This document shows positions 1,843 to 54,964 of a stretch of DNA of 64,000 nt, in pieces. This stretch comes from an uncultured Rhodobacterales bacterium (lineage in GTDB: Bacteria > Pseudomonadota > Alphaproteobacteria > Rhodospirillales > Rhodospirillaceae). The position numbers and the translations under genes are program-made. Location: contig CAZNUW010000008.1 in NCBI GenBank assembly GCA_964576515.1, forward strand, positions 36,307 through 100,306, in the 5' to 3' direction. Every line of letters begins with the position of its first letter. Positions within the stretch are counted from its first letter, which is position 1. Under the pieces are notes generated by a model, which did not search any database, was not told the DNA's origin, and worked only from the letters and a program-made list of their open reading frames with translations.

Positions 1843-2136
1843 CTACGCACGCGGCGCGGCGGGATAGACTTGCCGCGTCGGTTGAATGACAACGCGCTCA
1901 AAGAGCCCGCCGATCCGGTAGGGGTCCGCGTCGGAAAATCTTTGTGCGTCGTCCAACGCCGCAAATTCACCGATGATGATCGATCCATGAGCGGTATTTG
2001 AATCCGGCGACAACATCGGACCCGCAAAAGCCAAGGTTACACCGGTCTTCTCGATCCACTCGAGATGAGCGGGACGGAGAAGTTGGCGCAACCCGGCATG
2101 GCCGGGTTTGTCGAAACACAGCAGCGAAATGAGCAT
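1843..2136 (-). CDS. YciI family protein
   Basis: About 97 aa from MLISLLCFDKPG... with PMLSPD..HGSIIIGEF...A..F...DPY. AGGAA lies 6 nt upstream of the ATG at 2136, so the ORF-track start at 2190 was trimmed. Confidence 0.75.
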   Translation of the reverse strand: MLISLLCFDKPGHAGLRQLLRPAHLEWIEKTGVTLAFAGPMLSPDSNTAHGSIIIGEFAALDDAQRFSDADPYRIGGLFERVVIQPTRQVYPAAPRA

Positions 2137-2401
2137 GGTCGTTTCCTGGAACATTTGCGGTTGGGGCAAAGACTCTTTCGCAGCTCCCATGTGCTACCCG
2201 CGGGTTCGTCAACGTTCGCACTTCGTTCGATATGAGATGGATAGCTGGTATGCAGTGATGGCATATCGAGGACCAATTGGAGAACGTTCCACCGTGCTCC
2301 CGGAATCACGCGCGTTGCGCGCGATCCGAGCGCCGCGGCCCTCCAACCGCGGACGCCGCTCGCAACGCGTCGCTTCACGATCGTCGCGCAACCGTGATCG
2401 G

Positions 2402-20760: not shown

Positions 20761-20785
20761 GGAACTCTTCATAGTGGCGTTCGTT
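20761..20785 (+). promoter_or_regulatory. EcfG-type promoter GGAAC-N16-CGTT (consensus)
   Basis: Exact motif, with the -10 lying 37 nt upstream of the DUF3309 ATG. Confidence 0.6.
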
Positions 20786-22411: not shown

Positions 22412-23200
22412 TTAGGCGTCGGGCTGGTCTTCCGCCAGTAACAAGGCCTGGGCGATTGTGGCCTTCACGCTATCGGCCATGAACGGCTTGGTGACAAGGA
22501 ATGTCGGTTCCGGCCGCTCACCGGTGAGAAGGCGTTCCGGATAGGCGGTGATGAAAATCACCGGTGCATCCACCTGCTCAAGAATGTCGCTGACCGCGTC
22601 GATCCCTGAACTGTTGTCTGCGAGCTGGATGTCCGCGAGGATAAGACCCGGACGCCACTTTCCCACGGCGTTGACGGCTTCCTTGCGTGTACGCACCACG
22701 GCGAACACGTTATGACCCATCTCCTCAACGATATTGGAAAGGTCGAGCGAGATGATAGGCTCGTCCTCGATAATAAGAACCGACGTGGGGCTTTGCGCGA
22801 CGAGGTCGTACAAGGCTTCTTTCACCATCCGGCCGATTTCGTCCGGCGTACGATCAAGGATTTGCGCCGCCTCGGATTGGGTGAAATCCTCCATCGCGGT
22901 AAGAAGCAGCGCCTGACGCCGCGCGACACCCAGCGCGTCAAGTTTGTCGCGGAACTTATCGCTCCCCTCACCCACCGCCGTCAAACCGCGCGCAGGCCGG
23001 GTCCCGGACCAAATCACATGAAAGATCCGATACAGCGCCACGCGCGGATGCATATCGCGGTGATACCTGTCCGGAGACTCCACTATGGCCTCCAGGGTCG
23101 CGCGCACATAGGCGTCACCACTGGCCTGCGAGCCGGCGAGCGCCCGCGCATAACGGCGCAGGAACGGAAGGTGGGAAGCGATTTCGTGGGACAGCGACAT
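22412..23200 (-). CDS. phyR: PhyR anti-anti-sigma response regulator (sigma-like domain plus receiver)
   Basis: N-terminal ECF-sigma-like domain (HLPFLRRYARAL.G....D.YV...LE) and C-terminal receiver (VLIIEDEP.I......, ILADIQL, KPF). Confidence 0.9.
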   Translation of the reverse strand: MSLSHEIASHLPFLRRYARALAGSQASGDAYVRATLEAIVESPDRYHRDMHPRVALYRIFHVIWSGTRPARGLTAVGEGSDKFRDKLDALGVARRQALLLTAMEDFTQSEAAQILDRTPDEIGRMVKEALYDLVAQSPTSVLIIEDEPIISLDLSNIVEEMGHNVFAVVRTRKEAVNAVGKWRPGLILADIQLADNSSGIDAVSDILEQVDAPVIFITAYPERLLTGERPEPTFLVTKPFMADSVKATIAQALLLAEDQPDA

Positions 23201-23245
23201 GATGGCTAGATCCTATTGTATCCCCGCGAACGCCGGGCACGCGCC

Positions 23246-23271
23246 AACGACGCCAAGGGGGACAAAGTTAA
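23246..23271 (-). promoter_or_regulatory. EcfG-like promoter candidate TTAAC-N17-CGTT upstream of phyR
   Basis: -10 is exact and the -35 keeps the AAC core. About 45 nt upstream of the phyR ATG. Confidence 0.4.
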
Positions 23272-23452
23272 ACAGGGCACCCGACATAAGGCTAGTTCAT
23301 TTTCGAGACATGAAGGAAGCGTCCGGCGGACGAGCAAGCGCTATGAAACGCATAAAGAGGAAGCATACGGCGACGGCGAGAAGGGCGATTTGAGATCACA
23401 TGAAGTGGCTGACCGTGGCCTGCCCCAGCGGCTGGGGCGTTCGCGGCGAACT

Positions 23453-23494
23453 GAAAAAGAAGAAGCGCCGCGAACCTGGAAGAGCCCGCGGCGC
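23453..23494 (-). terminator. intrinsic terminator after the Gln-rich ORF
   Basis: 8-bp stem GCGCCGCG/CGCGGCGC, followed on the minus strand by TTCTTCTTTTTC. Confidence 0.55.
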
Positions 23495-23505
23495 CCGAAA
23501 AGGCA

Positions 23506-23715
23506 TTATCGCTGCTGTTGATCGCGCCCCTGCTGTCCCTGCTGATTTTGCTGCGACTGCTGGCGATCCTGCTGATTCTGCTGACCTTGCTGGCGTTGCC
23601 GGTCATGCTGACCCTGTTGATTCTGCTGGCGCTGAGAGTCCTGCTGACTGTGCTGGCTCTGCTGATTTTGCTGGCCTTGCTGACGCTGCTGGTCCTGTCT
23701 GGATTTGTCCGTCAT
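23506..23715 (-). CDS. 69-aa glutamine-rich (36 of 69 Gln) low-complexity protein
   Basis: ATG preceded by AGAGGAA at about 7 nt. It has its own consensus EcfG promoter and its own terminator. No hydrophobic residue after Met1. RQQGQQNQQ-type repeats. Confidence 0.6.
   Translation of the reverse strand: MTDKSRQDQQRQQGQQNQQSQHSQQDSQRQQNQQGQHDRQRQQGQQNQQDRQQSQQNQQGQQGRDQQQR
23510..23700. repeat. CAG/CAA (CTG/TTG on plus strand) low-complexity repeat tract
   Basis: Runs of ctgctg / ttgctg with recurring units ctgctgattctgctg and ctgctgattttgctg. Confidence 0.8.
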
Positions 23716-23785
23716 GTCACCGTTCCTCTTTTTTATGAAGACTGCGTGGGCTCGACGTGCAGGGAATAGTTATCCCCTAACGCAG

Positions 23786-23810
23786 AACGGTAGAGGCGGC
23801 GGTTAGTTCC
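23786..23810 (-). promoter_or_regulatory. EcfG-type promoter GGAAC-N16-CGTT (consensus) for the Gln-rich ORF
   Basis: The plus strand reads AACG-N16-GTTCC. The -10 lies about 70 nt upstream of the ATG at 23715. Confidence 0.6.
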
Positions 23811-23858
23811 CGCCTCCATCGGCTTTTTTTATTCTCATGAGGGGAGTGAATGAGAGCC

Positions 23859-24158
23859 CTAGTGGGGGGTGGATCCGGCCTTCGTGGGCGGCGCCGGGGC
23901 GTCCGCGCGCGGCCCCTTATTCTCATCGTCAAGGGCCAAGAGGGCGCTCACGATGGACCCCAGGTGTCCATTCTCGCCCGAAGTCATATTCTCTTCCTCG
24001 GCGACCGCCATCAGGCGGGCGTCGACCTCCCACTGGCGCAGGATCTCCAGCTTCGCCTGACGCGAAAGCCCCGGATAAGTCAGAACGTCCTTCGGATGTT
24101 CAAAAAACTTGCTGGGATTGACCTTCGCCTCGGCGATATTCAGTTGCGTTTGGGCCAT
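23859..24158 (-). CDS. small conserved-looking hypothetical protein (GSR-linked)
   Basis: 99 aa from MAQTQLNIAEAK..., acidic core LSRQAKLEILRQWEVDARLMAVAEEENM. Consensus EcfG promoter immediately upstream. Confidence 0.55.
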   Translation of the reverse strand: MAQTQLNIAEAKVNPSKFFEHPKDVLTYPGLSRQAKLEILRQWEVDARLMAVAEEENMTSGENGHLGSIVSALLALDDENKGPRADAPAPPTKAGSTPH

Positions 24159-24191
24159 ATCGTCACCACATGTCGTTTCCGTGGGACGGGA

Positions 24192-24217
24192 AACGCCGTC
24201 CCTTCCGGCAAAGTTCC
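24192..24217 (-). promoter_or_regulatory. EcfG-type promoter GGAAC-N17-CGTT (consensus)
   Basis: The plus strand reads AACG-N17-GTTCC, about 35 nt upstream of the ATG at 24158. Confidence 0.6.
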
Positions 24218-24316
24218 GGTTGTGGAAAAATCTCGCGGGAGCCCCCTTCGGATTGACGCTCGGGTTCGCATCAAAACCTCCGTTCCTAAAAATCCAAGAG
24301 TTTGAAGAGTTTCCCC

Positions 24317-24341
24317 GAAACACTTTCTACTTGGCGGCGTT
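24317..24341 (+). promoter_or_regulatory. EcfG-type promoter GAAAC-N16-CGTT upstream of the ECF sigma gene (autoregulation)
   Basis: One mismatch in the -35. The -10 lies 37 nt upstream of the ATG at 24378. Confidence 0.55.
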
Positions 24342-24377
24342 GTAACTACTATCGGGGTTCAAATTCAGGGACGGGCT

Positions 24378-24932
24378 ATGGCTAACGAATTCCACCAGAT
24401 GCTGCTTGAGCACCTTCCGCGTCTGCAAGCCTACGCGATCATGCTGACCCGCGACCGCGCCCAGGCCGAAGACCTGCTTCAAGAAACATCCCTGCGCGCC
24501 CTGCGCGCGCAAAGCCAGTTCATGATGGGGACCAACTTCACGGCGTGGATCTATAAAATCCTGCGCAACGAGTACATCAGTTCGCTGCGGCGGAAGAAAC
24601 GCCAACCGGTTCAAATCGAGGATATGCCGGCTGAATTCCTATCGCGCAAAGGCGAACAGGAGAACGACGTTCTATCCCGCGAAATCATCCAGGCGATGGA
24701 CAAGCTTCAGCATGGCCAACGCGAGGTTCTGATCCTGATCTGCGCGAGCGGCCTCAGCTACGAAGAAGCCGCCGAGGCGCTCGGTTGTTCGGTCGGCACG
24801 ATCAAAAGCCGCTTGTGGCGCGCCCGCGCTCGTATGGCGTCGCTCATCATGGGCGACGAAGACACCAAATCCGGGAGAGGCCGTGATTTCATCGAGCCGC
24901 CCCGCGAGATGGCCAGTTCCGCATTCCTGTAG
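24378..24932 (+). CDS. ecfG: ECF sigma factor, EcfG (ECF15)-like
   Basis: Region 2 (DL.QET.L.A......F..GTNF.AW.Y.ILRN.YIS..RR) and region 4 (QREVL.L....G.SYEE.A..LG...GT.KSR. RAR). Located in a phyR/nepR context. Confidence 0.85.
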   Translation: MANEFHQMLLEHLPRLQAYAIMLTRDRAQAEDLLQETSLRALRAQSQFMMGTNFTAWIYKILRNEYISSLRRKKRQPVQIEDMPAEFLSRKGEQENDVLSREIIQAMDKLQHGQREVLILICASGLSYEEAAEALGCSVGTIKSRLWRARARMASLIMGDEDTKSGRGRDFIEPPREMASSAFL

Positions 24933-25063
24933 ATTGTCCCCTCCTCTGCGCCCGCTTACTATGTCTCGAGCCGAAGGCATCACGCCGCCCACACAAGCCG
25001 CCCTGCCACTAAGCCGCGCAGTTTTCAGTCCCCTTGATTTCCAGAAGTTGCTTTCGACCACTC

Positions 25064-25264
25064 ATGAGTGAGAAATCAAAATCAAAGCCTGACGCCACCG
25101 CGGCTTCACTTCGCCCACAAGCGAAGTTCAATCCCGCATTCGATTCATGGCTGGAAACGAAATTGCACAAGATATTCGATTCCGTCGCCTCCGAACCGCT
25201 GCCGCAAGATCTGGTGAAGCTGCTGGACGATATCGATCAGGCGGAAAAGAAAAAGAAGGGTTAG
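25064..25264 (+). CDS. nepR: NepR-family anti-sigma factor
   Basis: 66 aa with the motif L..K L.KIFDSVASEPLPQDLVKLLDDI, matching the NepR core (..V..EP.P..f..LL..l). Confidence 0.6.
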   Translation: MSEKSKSKPDATAASLRPQAKFNPAFDSWLETKLHKIFDSVASEPLPQDLVKLLDDIDQAEKKKKG

Positions 25265-28042: not shown

Positions 28043-28068
28043 GGAACGAATCCCCGCCTCCCCACGTT
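28043..28068 (+). promoter_or_regulatory. EcfG-type promoter GGAAC-N17-CGTT (consensus)
   Basis: About 57 nt upstream of the SH3-protein start. Confidence 0.6.
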
Positions 28069-28124: not shown

Positions 28125-28574
28125 GTGAGGAGCGTCATGACGAAGTCCCCCATTCTGTTCGCCGCGCTATGTGTCACCGCCGTTTTCGCCGCGCCGGCCA
28201 TGGCCGCGAACGGGTCCACCTCGCAAGGCATACAGATGCAGGCTGGACCGGGATCGGACTATCCCGATGTGATGCGTCTCGCGCCCAACCTGAAGGTGAC
28301 CATTCATGGATGTTCGCGGACGTGGGATTGGTGCGACGTTGAGTGGCGCGGCAATCGCGGATGGGTGCCAGCGGCCACCATCGACTACCGGCGCGGCGAC
28401 ACGCTTTTTCCGGTAGCGAATTTTGGACCGCGCATCGGGCTTCCCCAAGTCGACTTCAACCTCGGAAGCTACTGGAACGCTCACTATCGTCAGCGGCCTT
28501 GGTACGCGCAGCGTCAGGCGTGGGCCACACGCACGCAGCCGCCGGTCCGTGTCTTCGCCGAAGTCACGAACTAG
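28125..28574 (+). CDS. exported bacterial SH3-domain protein
   Basis: Signal peptide ...AAPAMA, then an SH3_3-like V.A..L.MQAGPG..YP.V..L.....V...GC....WC.V.W.G..GWV segment. Alternative start at 28137. Confidence 0.7.
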   Translation: MRSVMTKSPILFAALCVTAVFAAPAMAANGSTSQGIQMQAGPGSDYPDVMRLAPNLKVTIHGCSRTWDWCDVEWRGNRGWVPAATIDYRRGDTLFPVANFGPRIGLPQVDFNLGSYWNAHYRQRPWYAQRQAWATRTQPPVRVFAEVTN

Positions 28575-28603
28575 AGGTTTATCAGGCGCCCTCTGCCCGC
28601 ATT

Positions 28604-28707
28604 CAAAAAAAGGCCCTTCCGCACATGGCGAAAGGGCCTTTTTGAAGTCACAGGAATTTCGGCGGAAGCGCGGGGGGAAAAGCGCTGGGGAACACGCCGA
28701 AATCACA
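28604..28707 (-). ncRNA. candidate EcfG-dependent small RNA (about 100 nt, GsrN-like architecture)
   Basis: A consensus EcfG promoter with no ORF downstream. Stem ATTTCGGCG/CGCCGAAAT encloses AGCGC-UUUUCCCCCC-GCGCU. This is followed by the terminator GGCCCTTTC...GGAAGGGCC plus a T7 run. Confidence 0.45.
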
Positions 28708-28713
28708 CACCAT

Positions 28714-28738
28714 AACGGCGGCATCCGATGAAGGTTCC
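28714..28738 (-). promoter_or_regulatory. EcfG-type promoter GGAAC-N16-CGTT (consensus) with no protein gene downstream
   Basis: The plus strand reads AACG-N16-GTTCC. It points toward 28700->28600. Confidence 0.6.
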
Positions 28739-28787: not shown

Positions 28788-29210
28788 CTAGTTGTTTGCG
28801 TGTGCCGGCGCGGCCGCCAAGGTCTGGCGATCTTCGCCACTCAGGGCCTCGATAAGGCCTTGCTCTAACAACTCTATTCCGTAAGGTTTGCGAATGGATG
28901 CACAATCCTGAAGTTCGACCGGAAGGTTCTTGTCATCCATGCCGGTGGTCACGATGACCCGAATACCCCTTTTCCGGAACTGCTCGGCGGCAGGCGCGCT
29001 GCCTTCGCCTTTTAATCTGTAATCGAGCAAAACCGCATCGACATCGCAGGCCTCCAAAGTATCGGCCAGGGACAAGGCCTCCGTAAGCGTCCGGGCTGTC
29101 CCCGCATGAACGCACCCCAATTCGTCCAGCATGATCTCGAGCATGGCATTGATAGGGACTTCGTCTTCGATAACGGCGATGCGTTTACCGGCCAAAACGG
29201 GATGACTCAC
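28788..29210 (-). CDS. single-domain response regulator (receiver only)
   Basis: RIAVIEDE, phospho-acceptor context VLLDYRL, and a T/K motif (VIVTTG..., IRKPY). No output domain. Confidence 0.85.
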   Translation of the reverse strand: MSHPVLAGKRIAVIEDEVPINAMLEIMLDELGCVHAGTARTLTEALSLADTLEACDVDAVLLDYRLKGEGSAPAAEQFRKRGIRVIVTTGMDDKNLPVELQDCASIRKPYGIELLEQGLIEALSGEDRQTLAAAPAHANN

Positions 29211-29566: not shown

Positions 29567-30149
29567 ATGATGAAACGGACGTTGATTTGGTCGATCGGCC
29601 TGTGCGCAACGCTAGCCCTTTGCGCGCCGGCGCAGGCAGCCTGGTACCGGGGCAATACCCATACGCATTCCTTGAACTCGGATGGCAACGTCGCGCCGGA
29701 CGCGGTCGTGCGCTGGTACCGTGAGCACGGATATCAGTTCGTGGTGATGACCGAACATGAATACATCACCGATGTCGCGCCATTACAGGCGCTGTTCGGC
29801 GCACACGAGCAATTCCTTGGTGCGCGCGGAGCGGTTGTCCCCGGAAGCAATCACGGCGGCGCTGGCGAAGGGCGATTTCTATTCCTCCACCGGCGTCACC
29901 CTCGACGATGTGACGGCGAGCGCCAAGGAAATCGCGATCAAAATCAAAACCGAGATCCGGCCGCGCGTCAGAACCAACGCACGTTTCATGACGCGCTTCA
30001 TCGGCAGAGATGGAAAAGTCCTGGCCGAAGCGCCGGGAACAGAACCGAAGTATGTAATACGCGGCGACGAGGGCTACATCCGCGCGGCGATCACGGACTC
30101 CAACGGACGTAAAGCCTGGACCCAGCCGGTGTTTACATCCCGGAAGTAA
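29567..30149 (+). pseudogene. decayed PHP-family metal-dependent phosphoesterase (internal deletion plus frameshift)
   Basis: Frame 1 gives a signal peptide plus WYRGNTHTHSLNSDGN...WYREHGYQFVVMTEHEY, then nonsense. Frame 3 resumes with LVRAERLSPEAITAALAKGDFYSSTGV...AWTQPVF. The junction is near 29805-29820 and the central catalytic part is missing. Confidence 0.6.
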
Positions 30150-30177: not shown

Positions 30178-31779
30178 CTATTTCACCTCGACCGTTTGCC
30201 CCGGAAGCGGCGGCGTGTTGACCGGCCGCCGGATCGCCTTGGAAGCCTGCTCAAACGCGTACCCAAGCGAAAGCAGCTTCGGTTCGCTGTAAGCTGTGCC
30301 CAGAAACGAAATCGCGACCGGAAGGTCGTCGGTCGTGAAACCGGCCGGGACGACCAGATCGGGGAAGCCGGTCAGCGGCGCGATCACGGAGGATGAGACA
30401 CCGCCGCCGCCGGAGGTCGACGGAGAGCCCGCGATGGCTGCAGGCCGTGTCCGCCCTGTCGGGTAAACGATGGCGTCCAATTTGTCCTTCTGTAGCGTCC
30501 CGTTAATGAGCGCGCGGGCCATCGGCATACCGAAATCATGGGCGGCGATGTATCCGGGATCGGTCATCGCGCCACTCGCTTTCTCGACCTTGAAGAAGTT
30601 CCATCGGAAGGGATTCGGCCCCTCGCCCGTCGGGCGGAGATCGTTGTAGCTTTCAGCGGCCGCGATCAGGCCATCGAGGTCTTTCGGATATTTCGGTGCG
30701 GTCGTTTTCAGATAGTCGCCGATCTGCACCGCGAACTCGGGCGGATAGATCGACCACAGCATCGCCGAGGCCGAATCAACGAACCACTTTGGCAACCGCA
30801 CATCGACAACGGTAGCGCCGGATTTCTGCATGGTCTTGATGGCGGCCTCCACCACCCAATCGACATCCGGATCGGCGCCCAGATAGTCGCGCGCGATGCC
30901 GATCCGGGCGCCCTTCAAGCCGTCGGCGTTCAGGAACTTCGTATAGTCCTTCTGCGCATTGCCTTTCTGCGTCTGTGTGGTGGGATCGGCTTTATCGATA
31001 CCGGCGGTGACGCCCAAGGAAACCGCGATATCGGTGACATTGCGCGTCATCGGTCCGGCCATGTCGAGACTGAGAGACAGCGGGATCACGCCGTCATGAC
31101 TGATGAGGCCGTAGGTCGGGCGCATGCCGACGATACCGTTGGTGGCCGACGGACCGCGGATCGATCCGCCGGTGTCGGTTCCATAGCCGAGCGGCGCATA
31201 TCCCGCCGCGATGCCCACACCCGTCCCTCCGGAGGAGCCAGACGGCGTGCGCGTAAGGTCGTGCGGGTTCAACGACTGCCCGCCCTTTGAACTTTGAAAG
31301 CCGTTCGCGAATTCCCCGAGATTGACCTTGGCCAGGATAATGGCGCCGCCATCGCGCAGTTGCTTCACGAGATGAGCATCGTCCGGCGGCATACTGCCCT
31401 CGAGCAGGACAGATCCGCCTGTCGTCGCGATATCGACGGTATCGATGTTGTCCTTGAAGATGACAGGGATACCATGCAGCGGGCCGCGGACTTTCCCCGC
31501 CTTGCGCTCCGCATCGAGCGCACGGGCGATCTCCATCGCTTTCGGATTGAGGGCGATCACCGCGTGGAGTTTTGGGCCGGCGCGATCATAAGCCGCAATG
31601 CGCGCGAGACACATTTCGGTGAGTTTCTCGGCGGTCAGCGTCCCCGCCGCCATTGCCGCCTGGAGCTCGACGATCGTCGCCTGATCCATCTCGACCGGGC
31701 GCGCCTGCGCCGGCACGGCAACCATGAGAGCGCCGGCGAGCGCGGCCGCCACCGCCAGCATGCTGACTTGTTTCTTCAT
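30178..31779 (-). CDS. exported amidase-signature (Ser-cisSer-Lys) enzyme, paralog A
   Basis: Signal peptide ...AVPAQA, FKDNID (Lys), GSSGGTGV, GTDTGGSIRGPS. Start MKKQVS at 31779. Confidence 0.85.
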   Translation of the reverse strand: MKKQVSMLAVAAALAGALMVAVPAQARPVEMDQATIVELQAAMAAGTLTAEKLTEMCLARIAAYDRAGPKLHAVIALNPKAMEIARALDAERKAGKVRGPLHGIPVIFKDNIDTVDIATTGGSVLLEGSMPPDDAHLVKQLRDGGAIILAKVNLGEFANGFQSSKGGQSLNPHDLTRTPSGSSGGTGVGIAAGYAPLGYGTDTGGSIRGPSATNGIVGMRPTYGLISHDGVIPLSLSLDMAGPMTRNVTDIAVSLGVTAGIDKADPTTQTQKGNAQKDYTKFLNADGLKGARIGIARDYLGADPDVDWVVEAAIKTMQKSGATVVDVRLPKWFVDSASAMLWSIYPPEFAVQIGDYLKTTAPKYPKDLDGLIAAAESYNDLRPTGEGPNPFRWNFFKVEKASGAMTDPGYIAAHDFGMPMARALINGTLQKDKLDAIVYPTGRTRPAAIAGSPSTSGGGGVSSSVIAPLTGFPDLVVPAGFTTDDLPVAISFLGTAYSEPKLLSLGYAFEQASKAIRRPVNTPPLPGQTVEVK

Positions 31780-33411: not shown

Positions 33412-35025
33412 CTACTTCTCAGGAACTTCAATCGTGGCGCCCGGCAGCGCCGGCGTGTTGACGGGCCTGCGGATTGCCTTTGTCGCCTGTTCATACGCGT
33501 AACCAAGCGCAAGAAGCTTCGGCTCCGTGAAGGCGGTGCCCGTGAACGAAATCGTCACCGGGAGGTCGTCGGTCGTAAAGCCTACGGGAACAACCAGGTC
33601 CGGGAAGCCGGTAAGATTGCCGATGCCGGTCGGCACACGGCTGATCGCCGGCGGCGGGTTCTGCGGTCCCGCGATCTGCACGACGCGGCGCATCCCGGTC
33701 GGATAAACGATGGTATCGAGTTTATCCTTGGCAAACATGCCTTCGACCAGCGCACGGCTCATCGGCATCCAGTGGTCGCGTAAGGCGATATAGCCCGGGT
33801 CGGTGAGCTGCTCTGCCTTGGCCTCAACGTTCTTGAAGTAAAGCCAACGCGAGAGATTTGGACCCTCGCCCGTCGGACGCAGATCGTTATACGCCTCGGC
33901 CCGCTCGATCAGTTGCGCGAGGTTTTTTGGATACTTGGGCCCAGTGGTCTTCAGGTAATCGCCGATCTGGACCGCGAATTCGGCCGGGTAAAGGGTAAAC
34001 ACCGCGGGCCCGGTCTGATCCAGGAACCACGTGGGATAGCGCACGTCGATCAAGGTCGCGCCCGCCCGCCGCATCGCCTTCAGCGCCGCTTCAAACGCCC
34101 AATCGACATCGGGATCGGCGCCCGTAAAGTCGCGCGCGACGCCGATGCGCGCCCCCTTCAGGGCGTTCGCATCCAGGAACTTGGTGTAATCCTTTTCAAA
34201 CCTTCCCGCGCTTTTCTTGGTAGCGTCGTCGGCGGGATCCACGCCCGCCGTGATTCCCAATGAGACGGCGATGTCATAGACGCTGCGGGTCATAGGACCG
34301 CCGGTATCCAGCGACAACGCCAGGGGAATGATGCCGTCGCGGCTGATGAGACCGTGTGTGGGCTTCAAACCGACAATGCCGTTCACGTTCGAGGGTCCAC
34401 GAATGGACCCGCCGGTGTCGGTCCCATACCCCAACGGCGCGTACCCCGCGGCAATTCCGACGCCCGTACCGCCGGACGAACCGCCGGGGATACGCGTCAG
34501 GTCGTGAGGATTGAGCGATTGCCCCCCCATGGAACTTTGATAGCCGTTGGCGAACTCGCCGAGGTTCACCTTCGCGAGCATGATCGCGCCTGCGTCGCGC
34601 AACTTCTTCACCAGGAAAGCATCGTCGGGCGCCATGCTGCCCTCGAGCAATACCGAACCGCCGGTGGTCGGCATCTCGATGGTGTCGATATTGTCCTTGA
34701 AGATCACAGGAATGCCGTGGAGCGGACCGCGGACTTTGCCCGCCTTGCGTTCGGCATCAAGCTGACGCGCGACCTCGAGCGCTTGCGGGTTGAGCGAGAT
34801 GACCGCATGGAGCTTGGGACCGGCGCGGTCGTACGCCGCGATCCGATCAAGGCAAAGCTGCGTCAGTTTCTCGGCGGTGAGCGTTCCCGCGGCCATCGCC
34901 GCCGACAACTCCGCGATTGTGGCCTGATCGAATTCGACTTGCTTCGCCGCAGCCGGGACGGCCGTCAACAGCGCCGCGCTCATCATGAGCGCGGCAATCG
35001 CATTTTTGTAAGAGGTCATGGCCAC
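33412..35025 (-). CDS. exported amidase-signature enzyme, paralog C
   Basis: Signal peptide ...VPAAA, FKDNID, GSSGGTGV, GTDTGGSIRGPS. Confidence 0.85.
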   Translation of the reverse strand: MAMTSYKNAIAALMMSAALLTAVPAAAKQVEFDQATIAELSAAMAAGTLTAEKLTQLCLDRIAAYDRAGPKLHAVISLNPQALEVARQLDAERKAGKVRGPLHGIPVIFKDNIDTIEMPTTGGSVLLEGSMAPDDAFLVKKLRDAGAIMLAKVNLGEFANGYQSSMGGQSLNPHDLTRIPGGSSGGTGVGIAAGYAPLGYGTDTGGSIRGPSNVNGIVGLKPTHGLISRDGIIPLALSLDTGGPMTRSVYDIAVSLGITAGVDPADDATKKSAGRFEKDYTKFLDANALKGARIGVARDFTGADPDVDWAFEAALKAMRRAGATLIDVRYPTWFLDQTGPAVFTLYPAEFAVQIGDYLKTTGPKYPKNLAQLIERAEAYNDLRPTGEGPNLSRWLYFKNVEAKAEQLTDPGYIALRDHWMPMSRALVEGMFAKDKLDTIVYPTGMRRVVQIAGPQNPPPAISRVPTGIGNLTGFPDLVVPVGFTTDDLPVTISFTGTAFTEPKLLALGYAYEQATKAIRRPVNTPALPGATIEVPEK

Positions 35026-53011: not shown

Positions 53012-54964
53012 TCAGAAATCCGCCGCCAAGGCAATCGAGTACCGGCGCTGCGGGATGTACTGGAAGAAGAAGTTGTTTCCGCCCTGGAGGTCCCAGGAAT
53101 AGGTGTTTGTGAGGTTCTGCACGCGCGCGCGCAGGTTCGCCGAGGCGCCGAAAACCTGGAAACGGTAGCGTACGCCCATATTCACGACAACACGCGACGG
53201 AATATCCGCCCGGTTGATCGTGTTTCCAAAACCGCGATCCGTGTACTCCAACTGCCCCTCCAGCGAGACGCCGCGCCAAGCGTCCGGGCCGTATTGGAGA
53301 TCGAGGCGCGCCGACGCCTCGTCCTTACCCGGCGGCACGTTGCCGATCACACCCTGATCGACCAATGAGCCGGAGACGCGCGGCTGCAACAGCACGCCAC
53401 CGGCAACAACATTCAGCCCGGGCAGCGGCTGTCCCGTGAAGGACAATTCAAGGCCGCGTTGACGCATATTGCCAACGACCGTGTACAGATTCGTCGCATC
53501 GCGATCGAAGAACGGTTTCGAGATCTGAAAGACCGCGCCATTCACGCGCATGCCCGGCATGATCACATACATAAAGCCGAGCTCGGCCTGTTTTGTCAGC
53601 GTCGCCGGCACCGCTTCGCCGCGATTACGAGCTGATTGCGGCGTCGAACCACCGTCTTCAAAGCCCTTCGTATAACTGGTGAAAAGCGTGAGGTCCTGGC
53701 CCGCCTTGAGCGACAACGAACCGTTATAAAGCAAGGGCGTCTGCTTGCTGACCTGGGTCGGATTCACCGGATGGGTCAACGTGCGTTCGTAGGTCGTCTT
53801 TTGAACGCCGATGTTGACATCGCCTACATTCCGCCACTGCCCGAAATACTGCGCCCCACCGGTCAACTGCTTCGCGCTATCGAGGCCTTGGGGGCTATGC
53901 ACCCAGGTCGGCTCAATGACCTGCGGCATCGCGTTTATATTCGCCGTGCCGAAAAACGACTGCGCGCTGCCGCCAGATGGACGTGAGAGCTGACGGCCAC
54001 GCCCCATCAAATAGACGGTGTGACGGATATCACCGGCGGTAAATACGCCCTGCGCCTGCACTTCACCGGAGGTCGTCTTGATGACGATCGGCAACAGCTT
54101 CTGGAACGTTACATCGGTCGTGCCATCAGGCTGCGTGTTGTTGAAGAAGGTCGTATGGTCTTGCCGTCGGTCATAAGTGGCGCGGAACAAACCCGCACGC
54201 AGCGTCCACATACTGTTGATCGTCGCGCGTCCAACCGCGCCGTAGTTCGTGTCGTGCTGCTCCCACTGGTTCCATTCCTGCGCGAAGTTCTCGCCGCGGG
54301 TCTGTTCCGGCGGAAGATAGTCGCCGCCGACGTAAATGAACGGCATGCCTTCGGAATTGGCGCGGCTGGCGCGGCCCCAAAAGGACACAAGTTCCATCGC
54401 GTCGCTCGGCGTCCAGCGCATCAACCCCGCATACGAATGATCGTCCGCGTCCGCGTTCATGTCGCTGACATAGCGCGTGCGCTCGGCGCCGCCGCCGATG
54501 CTGAGTTTTCCGGGGATCACCGGAATCTGCGTGTCGATCTCAAGACTTGTCTGATCGTAGGGCCCGAGCGTCGCGACGACGCTGGTGACTTGCTTGTCCA
54601 TCGGCTTGCGCAATCTAATGTCGACGACCGCGCTTGGCGCCGGGAATGGGAACGTTAGGGCGTTGACACCCACGCGAACCGTGAACCCGGAGAACAGTCG
54701 GTCGACCAGGACGTCGCCCGGCCCGGTCGACGGCCGATCGAAGTACATGCCTTCGATGCGAACGTTGCCGGACTGTTGTGGATTGAAGCCACGCGCATTG
54801 CGGGCGTCGTAGAGACCGATCGTCTCGTTCCCAACCGTGGTGCCGAAGGCATCATCCGCCGCGGCGACCGCGTTATCATCGGCGCGTTGCGCCCATGCAC
54901 TTGTGGACTCCAGGCTCGACACACCGAGCGCAAGGATGGCCCAACGAACCAAACTGACCTGCAC
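53012..54964 (-). CDS. TonB-dependent-receptor-like outer-membrane beta-barrel protein
   Basis: Signal peptide, a short plug-like N-terminus (NVRIEGMYFDR), alternating beta-strand pattern, and a terminal ...SIALAADF. The GTG 54964 start is preferred, with the ORF-track start at 55009. Confidence 0.7.
   Translation of the reverse strand: MQVSLVRWAILALGVSSLESTSAWAQRADDNAVAAADDAFGTTVGNETIGLYDARNARGFNPQQSGNVRIEGMYFDRPSTGPGDVLVDRLFSGFTVRVGVNALTFPFPAPSAVVDIRLRKPMDKQVTSVVATLGPYDQTSLEIDTQIPVIPGKLSIGGGAERTRYVSDMNADADDHSYAGLMRWTPSDAMELVSFWGRASRANSEGMPFIYVGGDYLPPEQTRGENFAQEWNQWEQHDTNYGAVGRATINSMWTLRAGLFRATYDRRQDHTTFFNNTQPDGTTDVTFQKLLPIVIKTTSGEVQAQGVFTAGDIRHTVYLMGRGRQLSRPSGGSAQSFFGTANINAMPQVIEPTWVHSPQGLDSAKQLTGGAQYFGQWRNVGDVNIGVQKTTYERTLTHPVNPTQVSKQTPLLYNGSLSLKAGQDLTLFTSYTKGFEDGGSTPQSARNRGEAVPATLTKQAELGFMYVIMPGMRVNGAVFQISKPFFDRDATNLYTVVGNMRQRGLELSFTGQPLPGLNVVAGGVLLQPRVSGSLVDQGVIGNVPPGKDEASARLDLQYGPDAWRGVSLEGQLEYTDRGFGNTINRADIPSRVVVNMGVRYRFQVFGASANLRARVQNLTNTYSWDLQGGNNFFFQYIPQRRYSIALAADF

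Follow-up and report, generated by a model that had tools for sequence, protein, structure and literature searches.

Alphaproteobacteria possess stress-induced small RNAs (sRNAs) of the alpha-r14/'cuckoo'/CcsR type, which have C-rich anti-Shine-Dalgarno hairpin loops with CCUCCUCCC, show RpoH-type dependence, and often consist of hairpins or genes repeated in tandem. [quoted passage not shown] 2018, eLife, PMC5869019). Six tandem cytosines in a 5' loop of GsrN target G-rich sites of mRNAs, the katG leader among them. GsrN has a role in surviving peroxide and osmotic stress and is processed endonucleolytically to a stable 5' isoform, and its BLASTn homologs are confined to the Caulobacteraceae (PMC5869019). 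GsrN-like sRNAs have been predicted next to GSR loci of Caulobacteraceae, Rhizobiaceae, Brucella, Rhodopseudomonas and Bradyrhizobium, and most of these predicted homologs, C. crescentus excepted, lie close to phyR, ecfG and nepR (PMC5869019). Another alphaproteobacterial sRNA, SuhB, is under LysR-type control in Sphingopyxis and has a regulon largely distinct from the EcfG regulon (preprint 10.64898/2025.12.09.693200).

We analysed a 64,000-nucleotide stretch of DNA (the window) from an uncultured Rhodospirillaceae-like lineage that lies outside the coverage of Tien et al. 2018. Region 28605-28706 of its minus strand is probably a gene in its own right, encoding a small regulatory RNA of about 100 nt that would act in trans. 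From comparison of related sequences, it is a conserved, structured, non-coding and strand-specific element with a conserved, predicted EcfG-type promoter and terminator. We infer, from the anatomy of the RNA and the GsrN precedent, that it is transcribed under the control of EcfG and acts by base-pairing; the direction in which it regulates is likewise inferred. The locus comprises the following features.

22412-23200, minus strand: phyR (NCBIfam PhyR, 340 bits)
24378-24932, plus strand: ecfG (ECF sigma domains, Pfam)
about 25064-25264, plus strand: nepR (Pfam NepR, 28.4 bits against a cutoff of 25.7)
28137-28574, plus strand: convergent gene for an SH3-domain protein (Pfam SH3_3; stop codon at 28574)
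28605-28706, minus strand: predicted sRNA of about 101 nt (RNAfold, covariance model, 17-copy alignment A5)
28714-28717, minus strand: putative -10 element CGTT, 16 nt 3' of the -35 element, invariant in full-length copies
28734-28738, minus strand: putative -35 element GGAAC of an EcfG-type promoter (direct reading; GGGAAC in most copies)
28788-29210, minus strand: co-directional upstream gene for a single-domain response regulator (RR; Pfam/NCBIfam receiver domain; stop at 28788)

The window thus carries a complete PhyR-NepR-EcfG core (22412-25264) in the order phyR (minus), ecfG (plus) and nepR (plus), with nepR 3' of ecfG; the usual gene order is nepR-ecfG. A near-consensus GAAAC-N16-CGTT lies ahead of ecfG (about 24319-24343, plus strand), and GSR-type cargo surrounds the core, namely CsbD, an AI-2E transporter, superoxide dismutase (SOD) and small hydrophilic proteins. 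The sRNA is situated about 3.3 kb from the end of nepR, 3.7 kb from ecfG and 5.4 kb from phyR.

RNAfold was used to fold 28707-28604, with 200 dinucleotide shuffles as background. Related loci were identified by a PhyR-anchored scan of species-representative genomes, metagenomes were scanned with a pattern of the invariant positions, and the contigs of eight homologs of the SH3 protein were added to the comparison. A covariance model was built from the first alignment and then run on 18 sources. The sequence of Caulobacter gsrN was taken from the gene-block sheet of PMC5869019, with its 5' end fixed by the RT primer. Candidate targets were sought by a duplex scan of the window with three unpaired sRNA segments, the scope being these 64 kb and small loci.

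The sequence-only reading from which this work started had placed an exact EcfG motif on the minus strand at 28714-28738, and re-reading returned the same exact match: GGAAC at 28738-28734, a 16-nt spacer, and CGTT at 28717-28714. Both GGAAC and CGTT are unchanged in every full-length copy that spans the upstream flank, and the 16-nt spacer between them drifts in sequence at constant length. The general motif GGAAC-N15-17-CGTT occurs six times in the window against 2.4 expected, a count reached in 3 of 100 shuffles, and four of the six strict motifs fall within 23.8-28.7 kb. Since the promoter motif alone is only about 2.5-fold above chance in the window, the case for the sRNA rests on context and conservation. 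The start site of Caulobacter gsrN, derived from supplement file 12 of PMC5869019, is 8 nt after CGTT, and this distance places the 5' end of the sRNA to within about 2 nt; by this analogy, +1 would be at about 28705-28706, at the base of the lower stem. The 3' end is the U7 run at 28611-28605. The only open reading frame (ORF) across the region is, as had been noted, an antisense one (28167-28724, minus strand, 185 aa), which runs antisense to the SH3 gene and has no Pfam match.

The predicted transcript folds at -43.9 kcal/mol, compared to -25.2 +/- 3.0 kcal/mol for the shuffled sequences (z = -6.2; none of the 200 shuffles was as good). RNAfold returns exactly the fold that had been drawn by eye, except that the lower stem has 10 bp, including a terminal G.U pair, rather than 9. 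The parts of the RNA are listed below in 5' to 3' order.

28695-28704, minus strand: 5' arm of the lower stem, GAUUUCGGCG, pairing with 28655-28664
28687-28694, minus strand: 5' internal loop UGUUCCCC, 8 nt, consensus CGUUCCCC (alignment A5, individual folds)
28667-28686, minus strand: upper hairpin AGCGC-UUUUCCCCCC-GCGCU with a 5-bp stem and a 10-nt loop (RNAfold)
28655-28664, minus strand: 3' arm of the lower stem, CGCCGAAAUU, covarying with 28695-28704
28639-28654, minus strand: single-stranded linker CCUGUGACUUCAAAAA, 16 nt (alignment A5)
28605-28638, minus strand: intrinsic terminator with an 11-bp G+C-rich stem, a 5-nt loop and U7 (sequence and RNAfold)

The G6 reported on the plus strand at 28672-28677 corresponds to a C6 run on the minus strand (28677-28672), which is the proposed seed of the RNA. 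Across copies, the apical loop that holds it consists of a variable A/U part of 1-5 nt followed by C5 to C12. When each copy was folded separately, the same architecture was obtained, and the C-run was unpaired with a probability of 0.99-1.00 in 17 of 17 copies, bearing out the claim of an exposed C-rich loop. A second conserved C-rich stretch, GUUCCCC, sits in the internal loop, which is near-invariant and unpaired both in alignment A5 and in the individual folds. The linker CCUGUGACU is invariant but for one G-to-A change in locus L008, with a mean unpaired probability of 0.96 and a minimum of 0.88 across copies; it is possibly a second seed or a protein or RNase site. The terminator reads GGCCCUUUCGC-CAUGU-GCGGAAGGGCC followed by U7.

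The PhyR-anchored scan gave ten related loci (PhyR identity 73-97%), all from uncultured 'Rhodospirillaceae bacterium' metagenome-assembled genomes (MAGs), two of them mislabelled Marinimicrobia, and BLASTN found the sRNA region in eight. The metagenome scan yielded one new true copy (L015), one duplicate contig (L014, identical to L008) and one chance match (L013), a yield which indicates that the sRNA family is narrow. Among 5.8 billion proteins, no more than 29 are homologs of the SH3 protein at 51% identity or higher. Exactly one copy per locus was found by the covariance model in 17 of the 18 sources, at 92-136 bits; the window copy scored 127.5 bits (E = 2e-28), and the same search detected no paralog of the sRNA in the window. 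Altogether, 16 further full-length copies were recovered from related MAGs and metagenome contigs, making 17 with the window. They can be aligned from the -35 box to the U-run and not beyond, the flanks being unalignable on either side.

Conservation of the structure in relatives, which had been put forward as a check, was examined in these 17 copies. RNAalifold independently recovers the three helices originally drawn, and covariation is present. Standard pairs occupy 98.6% of cells in the structural alignment, compared to 31-54% when the partners are slid by 1-3 columns. Double-sided changes occur at nine pairs: five of the ten pairs in the lower stem (97% of cells paired) and four pairs in the terminator (100%). 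None of 500 column shuffles reached the observed pairing and covariation values. We regard these statistics as supportive only, given that the 17 sequences are fairly closely related and that the test is not phylogeny-aware. The GCGC/GCGC of the upper stem never varies, so that covariation neither supports nor contradicts this helix.

The same alignment bears on strand and coding potential. There are 24 G.U cells and 3 A.C cells, the latter being what G.U would become on the other strand; the excess of G.U over A.C indicates that the folded molecule is the minus-strand transcript, the strand to which the promoter had been assigned. No conserved ORF is present among the 17 copies, in keeping with the non-coding transcript proposed earlier: nine lack any ORF of at least 12 codons from the 5' region, and in the remaining copies the ORFs agree in neither frame nor sequence. 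Length varies by 1-2 nt in the loop and the segments next to it, and the changes in loop length are non-multiples of three.

Two related sources depart from this pattern. The contig L017 (a Logan contig; 1900-2150, minus strand) carries a decayed copy with an intact -35 element, CGCT in place of the -10 element, and its 3' two-thirds deleted; it ends after the 5' half of the upper stem and is followed directly by the SH3 stop codon. Either the copy was lost naturally, in which case at least one population can do without the gene, or the assembly is at fault. In L010, the most distant relative, the 20 kb examined contain no sRNA copy, RR gene or SH3 gene, and a search of these 20 kb for an EcfG-driven non-coding RNA found that every EcfG motif precedes an ORF.

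The RR gene lies directly upstream of the sRNA and is co-directional with it, adjoining it in 16 of the 17 loci. No hairpin or terminator is present in the 50 nt that lead from the RR stop codon (28788) to the -35 box. Transcripts of the RR gene probably run into the sRNA, and part of the RNA pool could be 3' UTR of the RR mRNA; this route and that from an own promoter are not mutually exclusive. We nevertheless think it unlikely that the RNA is mainly such a 3' UTR, either as a processed 3'-UTR sRNA or as a cis-acting stabiliser or terminator of the RR transcript, with a promoter that is at most auxiliary. The promoter hexamers are invariant while their spacer drifts, which points to selection on the promoter itself, and the sequence from the RR stop codon to the -35 box is unalignable. 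Furthermore, in L009 (3245-5751) the RR gene is 2 kb away, separated from the sRNA by two opposite-strand genes (296 and 257 aa), yet GGAAC-N16-CGTT and an intact RNA are kept, and the sRNA still adjoins the SH3 gene. The upstream neighbour is divergent there, which suggests that the sRNA has, and needs, its own promoter. A separate observation is that the RR gene of the more distant L009/L015 lineage has its own GGAAC...CGTT (L015, 3444-3419); none lies upstream of the RR gene in the window.

On the other side of the sRNA, the terminator hairpin has A5 at one end and U7 at its other end, and is therefore probably bidirectional and common to the sRNA and the convergent SH3 gene. A terminator scanner did not list it, presumably because an A5/U5 extension of the stem consumes the tail. 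The arrangement with the SH3 gene is tail-to-tail in 17 of 17 loci, even in L009 with its broken RR linkage. Homologs of 145 aa favour ATG 28137 as the start of the SH3 gene, and this gene has a GGAAC-N17-CGTT of its own (28043-28068), which is conserved in orthologous loci. The two EcfG-driven transcripts are predicted to overlap by about 35-40 nt at their 3' ends, within the common hairpin, whose A-run and U-run would let it terminate both strands. These features would suit an element that acts in cis on the SH3 gene, through antisense or terminator-level control or as mere protection against convergent read-through, and that has no role in trans. A terminator is expected at this site anyway, to end the convergent SH3 gene. 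We consider action solely in cis quite improbable, as the most conserved and covarying part of the RNA (the 5' domain, the C-run and the linker) lies outside the overlap with the SH3 mRNA, and a terminator needs none of it; the G.U and A.C counts likewise argue for selection on the fold of the minus-strand RNA.

Very improbable, and largely refuted already by the comparative sequence data, is the proposal that there is no functional RNA, but a chance EcfG-like motif by a conserved bidirectional terminator or else a small protein gene: the motif's modest excess over chance and a 21-codon ORF in the window copy speak for it, whereas the conservation, covariation, strand asymmetry and abrupt conservation boundaries oppose a chance motif, and most copies either lack the ORF or have it in another frame, its ATG lying upstream of the expected sRNA start site.

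The preferred reading, an independent sRNA gene, was then compared to known RNAs. Rfam 15 gave no match at the gathering threshold anywhere in the window, and the best sub-threshold matches at permissive settings were noise (E of about 0.7-1.4). The best sub-threshold match of sRNA type on the RNA strand was SuhB/MmgR (RF00519, alpha-r8), which aligns with the linker (...CCU.GACUU...) and terminator. Its score is 15.8 bits, where the gathering score is 41 (E of about 1), and in view of this noise-level score and of its LysR-type control and largely separate regulon it was rejected as a relative. The alpha-r14/'cuckoo'/CcsR type is set apart, by the general descriptions given at the outset and by Rfam, from the RNA described here, which has a homopolymeric C-run, is single-copy and has an EcfG promoter.

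The comparison to GsrN gave likeness in design. Both RNAs have a consensus EcfG/sigma-T promoter (GGGAACC...CGTT), a start, predicted in the case of the present sRNA, right at the base of a 5'-terminal stem, and a length of about 100-110 nt. In both, a long 5'-terminal stem surrounds an unpaired C-rich tract and a short inner hairpin, and is followed by a single-stranded linker and an intrinsic terminator, with a run of about six cytosines as the best-conserved exposed element. Thus the statement that the RNA has the same design as GsrN stands for topology, promoter and exposed C-run, but not for the position of the C-run. In the minimum free energy fold of GsrN, the C6 tract is on the unpaired 5' side of the enclosed loop, by a GAAA-capped inner hairpin, whereas the present sRNA carries its C-run at the tip of the inner hairpin, in the apical loop. 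The present sRNA also differs from GsrN in having the second conserved C-rich internal loop and the invariant linker motif CCUGUGACUUCC.

Similarity to C. crescentus GsrN does not extend to sequence. The best local match is CCCCCCG, the only stretch common to both, and a score as good is obtained from 906 of 1000 shuffles; the 17-copy profile, run with nhmmer, found no match on the gsrN locus. Orthology to Caulobacter CCNA_R0081 finds no support in these pairwise and profile results, and the sequence-only reading was right not to assert homology. The sRNA shows the three in-silico features by which the GsrN-like class was recognised (Tien et al. 2018), namely an EcfG promoter (GGAAC-N16-CGTT), proximity to ecfG, nepR and phyR (3.3-5.4 kb), and an exposed C-rich 5' loop (C5 to C12, apical, with a covarying enclosing stem). 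As judged from its sequence, it is GsrN-like by design, and membership of the GsrN sequence family is unsupported.

The region around the GSR core is a compact GSR regulon island. Its conserved order is the RR gene, the sRNA, the convergent SH3 gene, a protein of about 180-200 aa, a small membrane protein, CsbD, AI-2E, ecfG, phyR and SOD, and synteny of the sRNA with the core is kept in seven related MAG loci. Five strict EcfG motifs (20761-20785, plus strand; 23810-23786, minus; 24217-24192, minus; 28043-28068, plus; 28738-28714, minus) are positionally conserved in most orthologous clusters, L006 and L015 lacking one position apiece. The motifs lie ahead of the sRNA and the SH3 gene, of two proteins with no Pfam match, one of 99 aa (23859-24158, minus strand) and one of 69 aa that is rich in glutamine (23506-23715, minus strand), and of a site beyond the SOD gene. 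The plus-strand ORFs 23400-23738 and 23850-24305 are antisense artefacts of real minus-strand genes, and tblastn with them still matches orthologous loci because the opposite strand is conserved. Beyond the RR gene, the window has two overlapping ORFs of 181 and 130 aa in different frames (29567-30149, plus strand), neither with a Pfam match. An Extensin-like_C (PF06904) gene is present at the equivalent position in L017, L020, L021 and L023, and a frameshift may have affected the window copy, which would then be a pseudogene or reflect an error in sequencing.

The duplex scan found one site at a translation start, in the leader of a TonB-dependent-receptor-like gene.

53012-54964, minus strand: TonB-dependent-receptor-like gene with a GUG start (no Pfam match itself; homologs carry PF00593)

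The leader (54990-54962, minus strand) reads ...GGGGGGGCGGCCUUUGGGGGGAAAUA-GUG, with G6 at the Shine-Dalgarno (SD) position (54975-54970, minus strand), and nine contiguous bases of it are complementary to UUUCCCCCC. A G5-6 SD is kept in four to five orthologs of 65-80% identity (L024-L027, about 470-500), a conservation that is explained equally well by ribosome binding. Duplex energies of matched and mismatched genome pairs revealed no co-variation between the sRNA and this leader. We regard the SD of the TonB-type receptor gene as a weak candidate target. A second run, G7, was observed in the window 9 nt upstream of this SD.

Other putative targets were rejected. The G6 run at 23864-23869 (plus strand) had been considered as a site in 'nepR', but the plus-strand ORF is an antisense artefact of a real minus-strand gene, the run is not conserved, and nepR is actually 3' of ecfG. 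The sites that scored best for the linker, at 34687-34716 and 31444-31473, are on the opposite strand to amidase ORFs, so that they represent same-sense similarity and not complementarity. The two amidase paralogs of the window share a conserved GIPVIFKD motif, whose sense strand is similar to the linker AUUCCUGUGACUUCAA (28639-28656, minus strand), a similarity that we judge to be a coincidence.

We propose the following course of events for the sRNA. Stress would activate PhyR, NepR would be titrated, and sigma-EcfG would be freed. EcfG-RNA polymerase would then initiate at GGAAC-N16-CGTT and end at the U7 terminator. The 5' domain, with its covarying 10-bp stem, would present the GUUCCCC internal loop and the apical loop of A/U plus C5-12, followed by the invariant single-stranded linker. 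The C-run, and possibly the linker, would seed pairing with G-rich mRNA sites, typically SD regions or 5' leaders. The sRNA may in this way add a post-transcriptional layer to the GSR, like GsrN in Caulobacter.

The sRNA defines a new sequence family with a narrow distribution in an uncultured lineage, and it belongs to a class of regulator that is already described and predicted to be widespread. It opens no new kind of biology, and its uncultured host limits direct testing. It does offer a clean, covariation-supported example for family model building. If confirmed, it would extend the GsrN paradigm to a Rhodospirillaceae-like lineage that is common in metagenomes, including those of activated sludge, with a sequence family that Rfam lacks and that has no sequence relationship to Caulobacter GsrN. 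Confirmation would also support the published prediction that the GSR of Alphaproteobacteria generally includes sRNAs of this kind. A further reading, which we offer tentatively and hold to be rather doubtful, is that the family, rather than being a diverged ortholog of GsrN, is an independently evolved analogue: an EcfG-driven sRNA separately recruited next to the GSR locus of this lineage, presenting a homopolymeric C-run on a 5' stem, locked tail-to-tail to an EcfG-driven gene for an SH3 envelope protein via a common bidirectional terminator, and maybe repressing a TonB-type outer-membrane receptor via the conserved G5-6 SD of the receptor gene. If that analogue reading is true, a C-run sRNA arm acting on G-rich ribosome-binding sites would be a recurrent, selected part of the alphaproteobacterial GSR.
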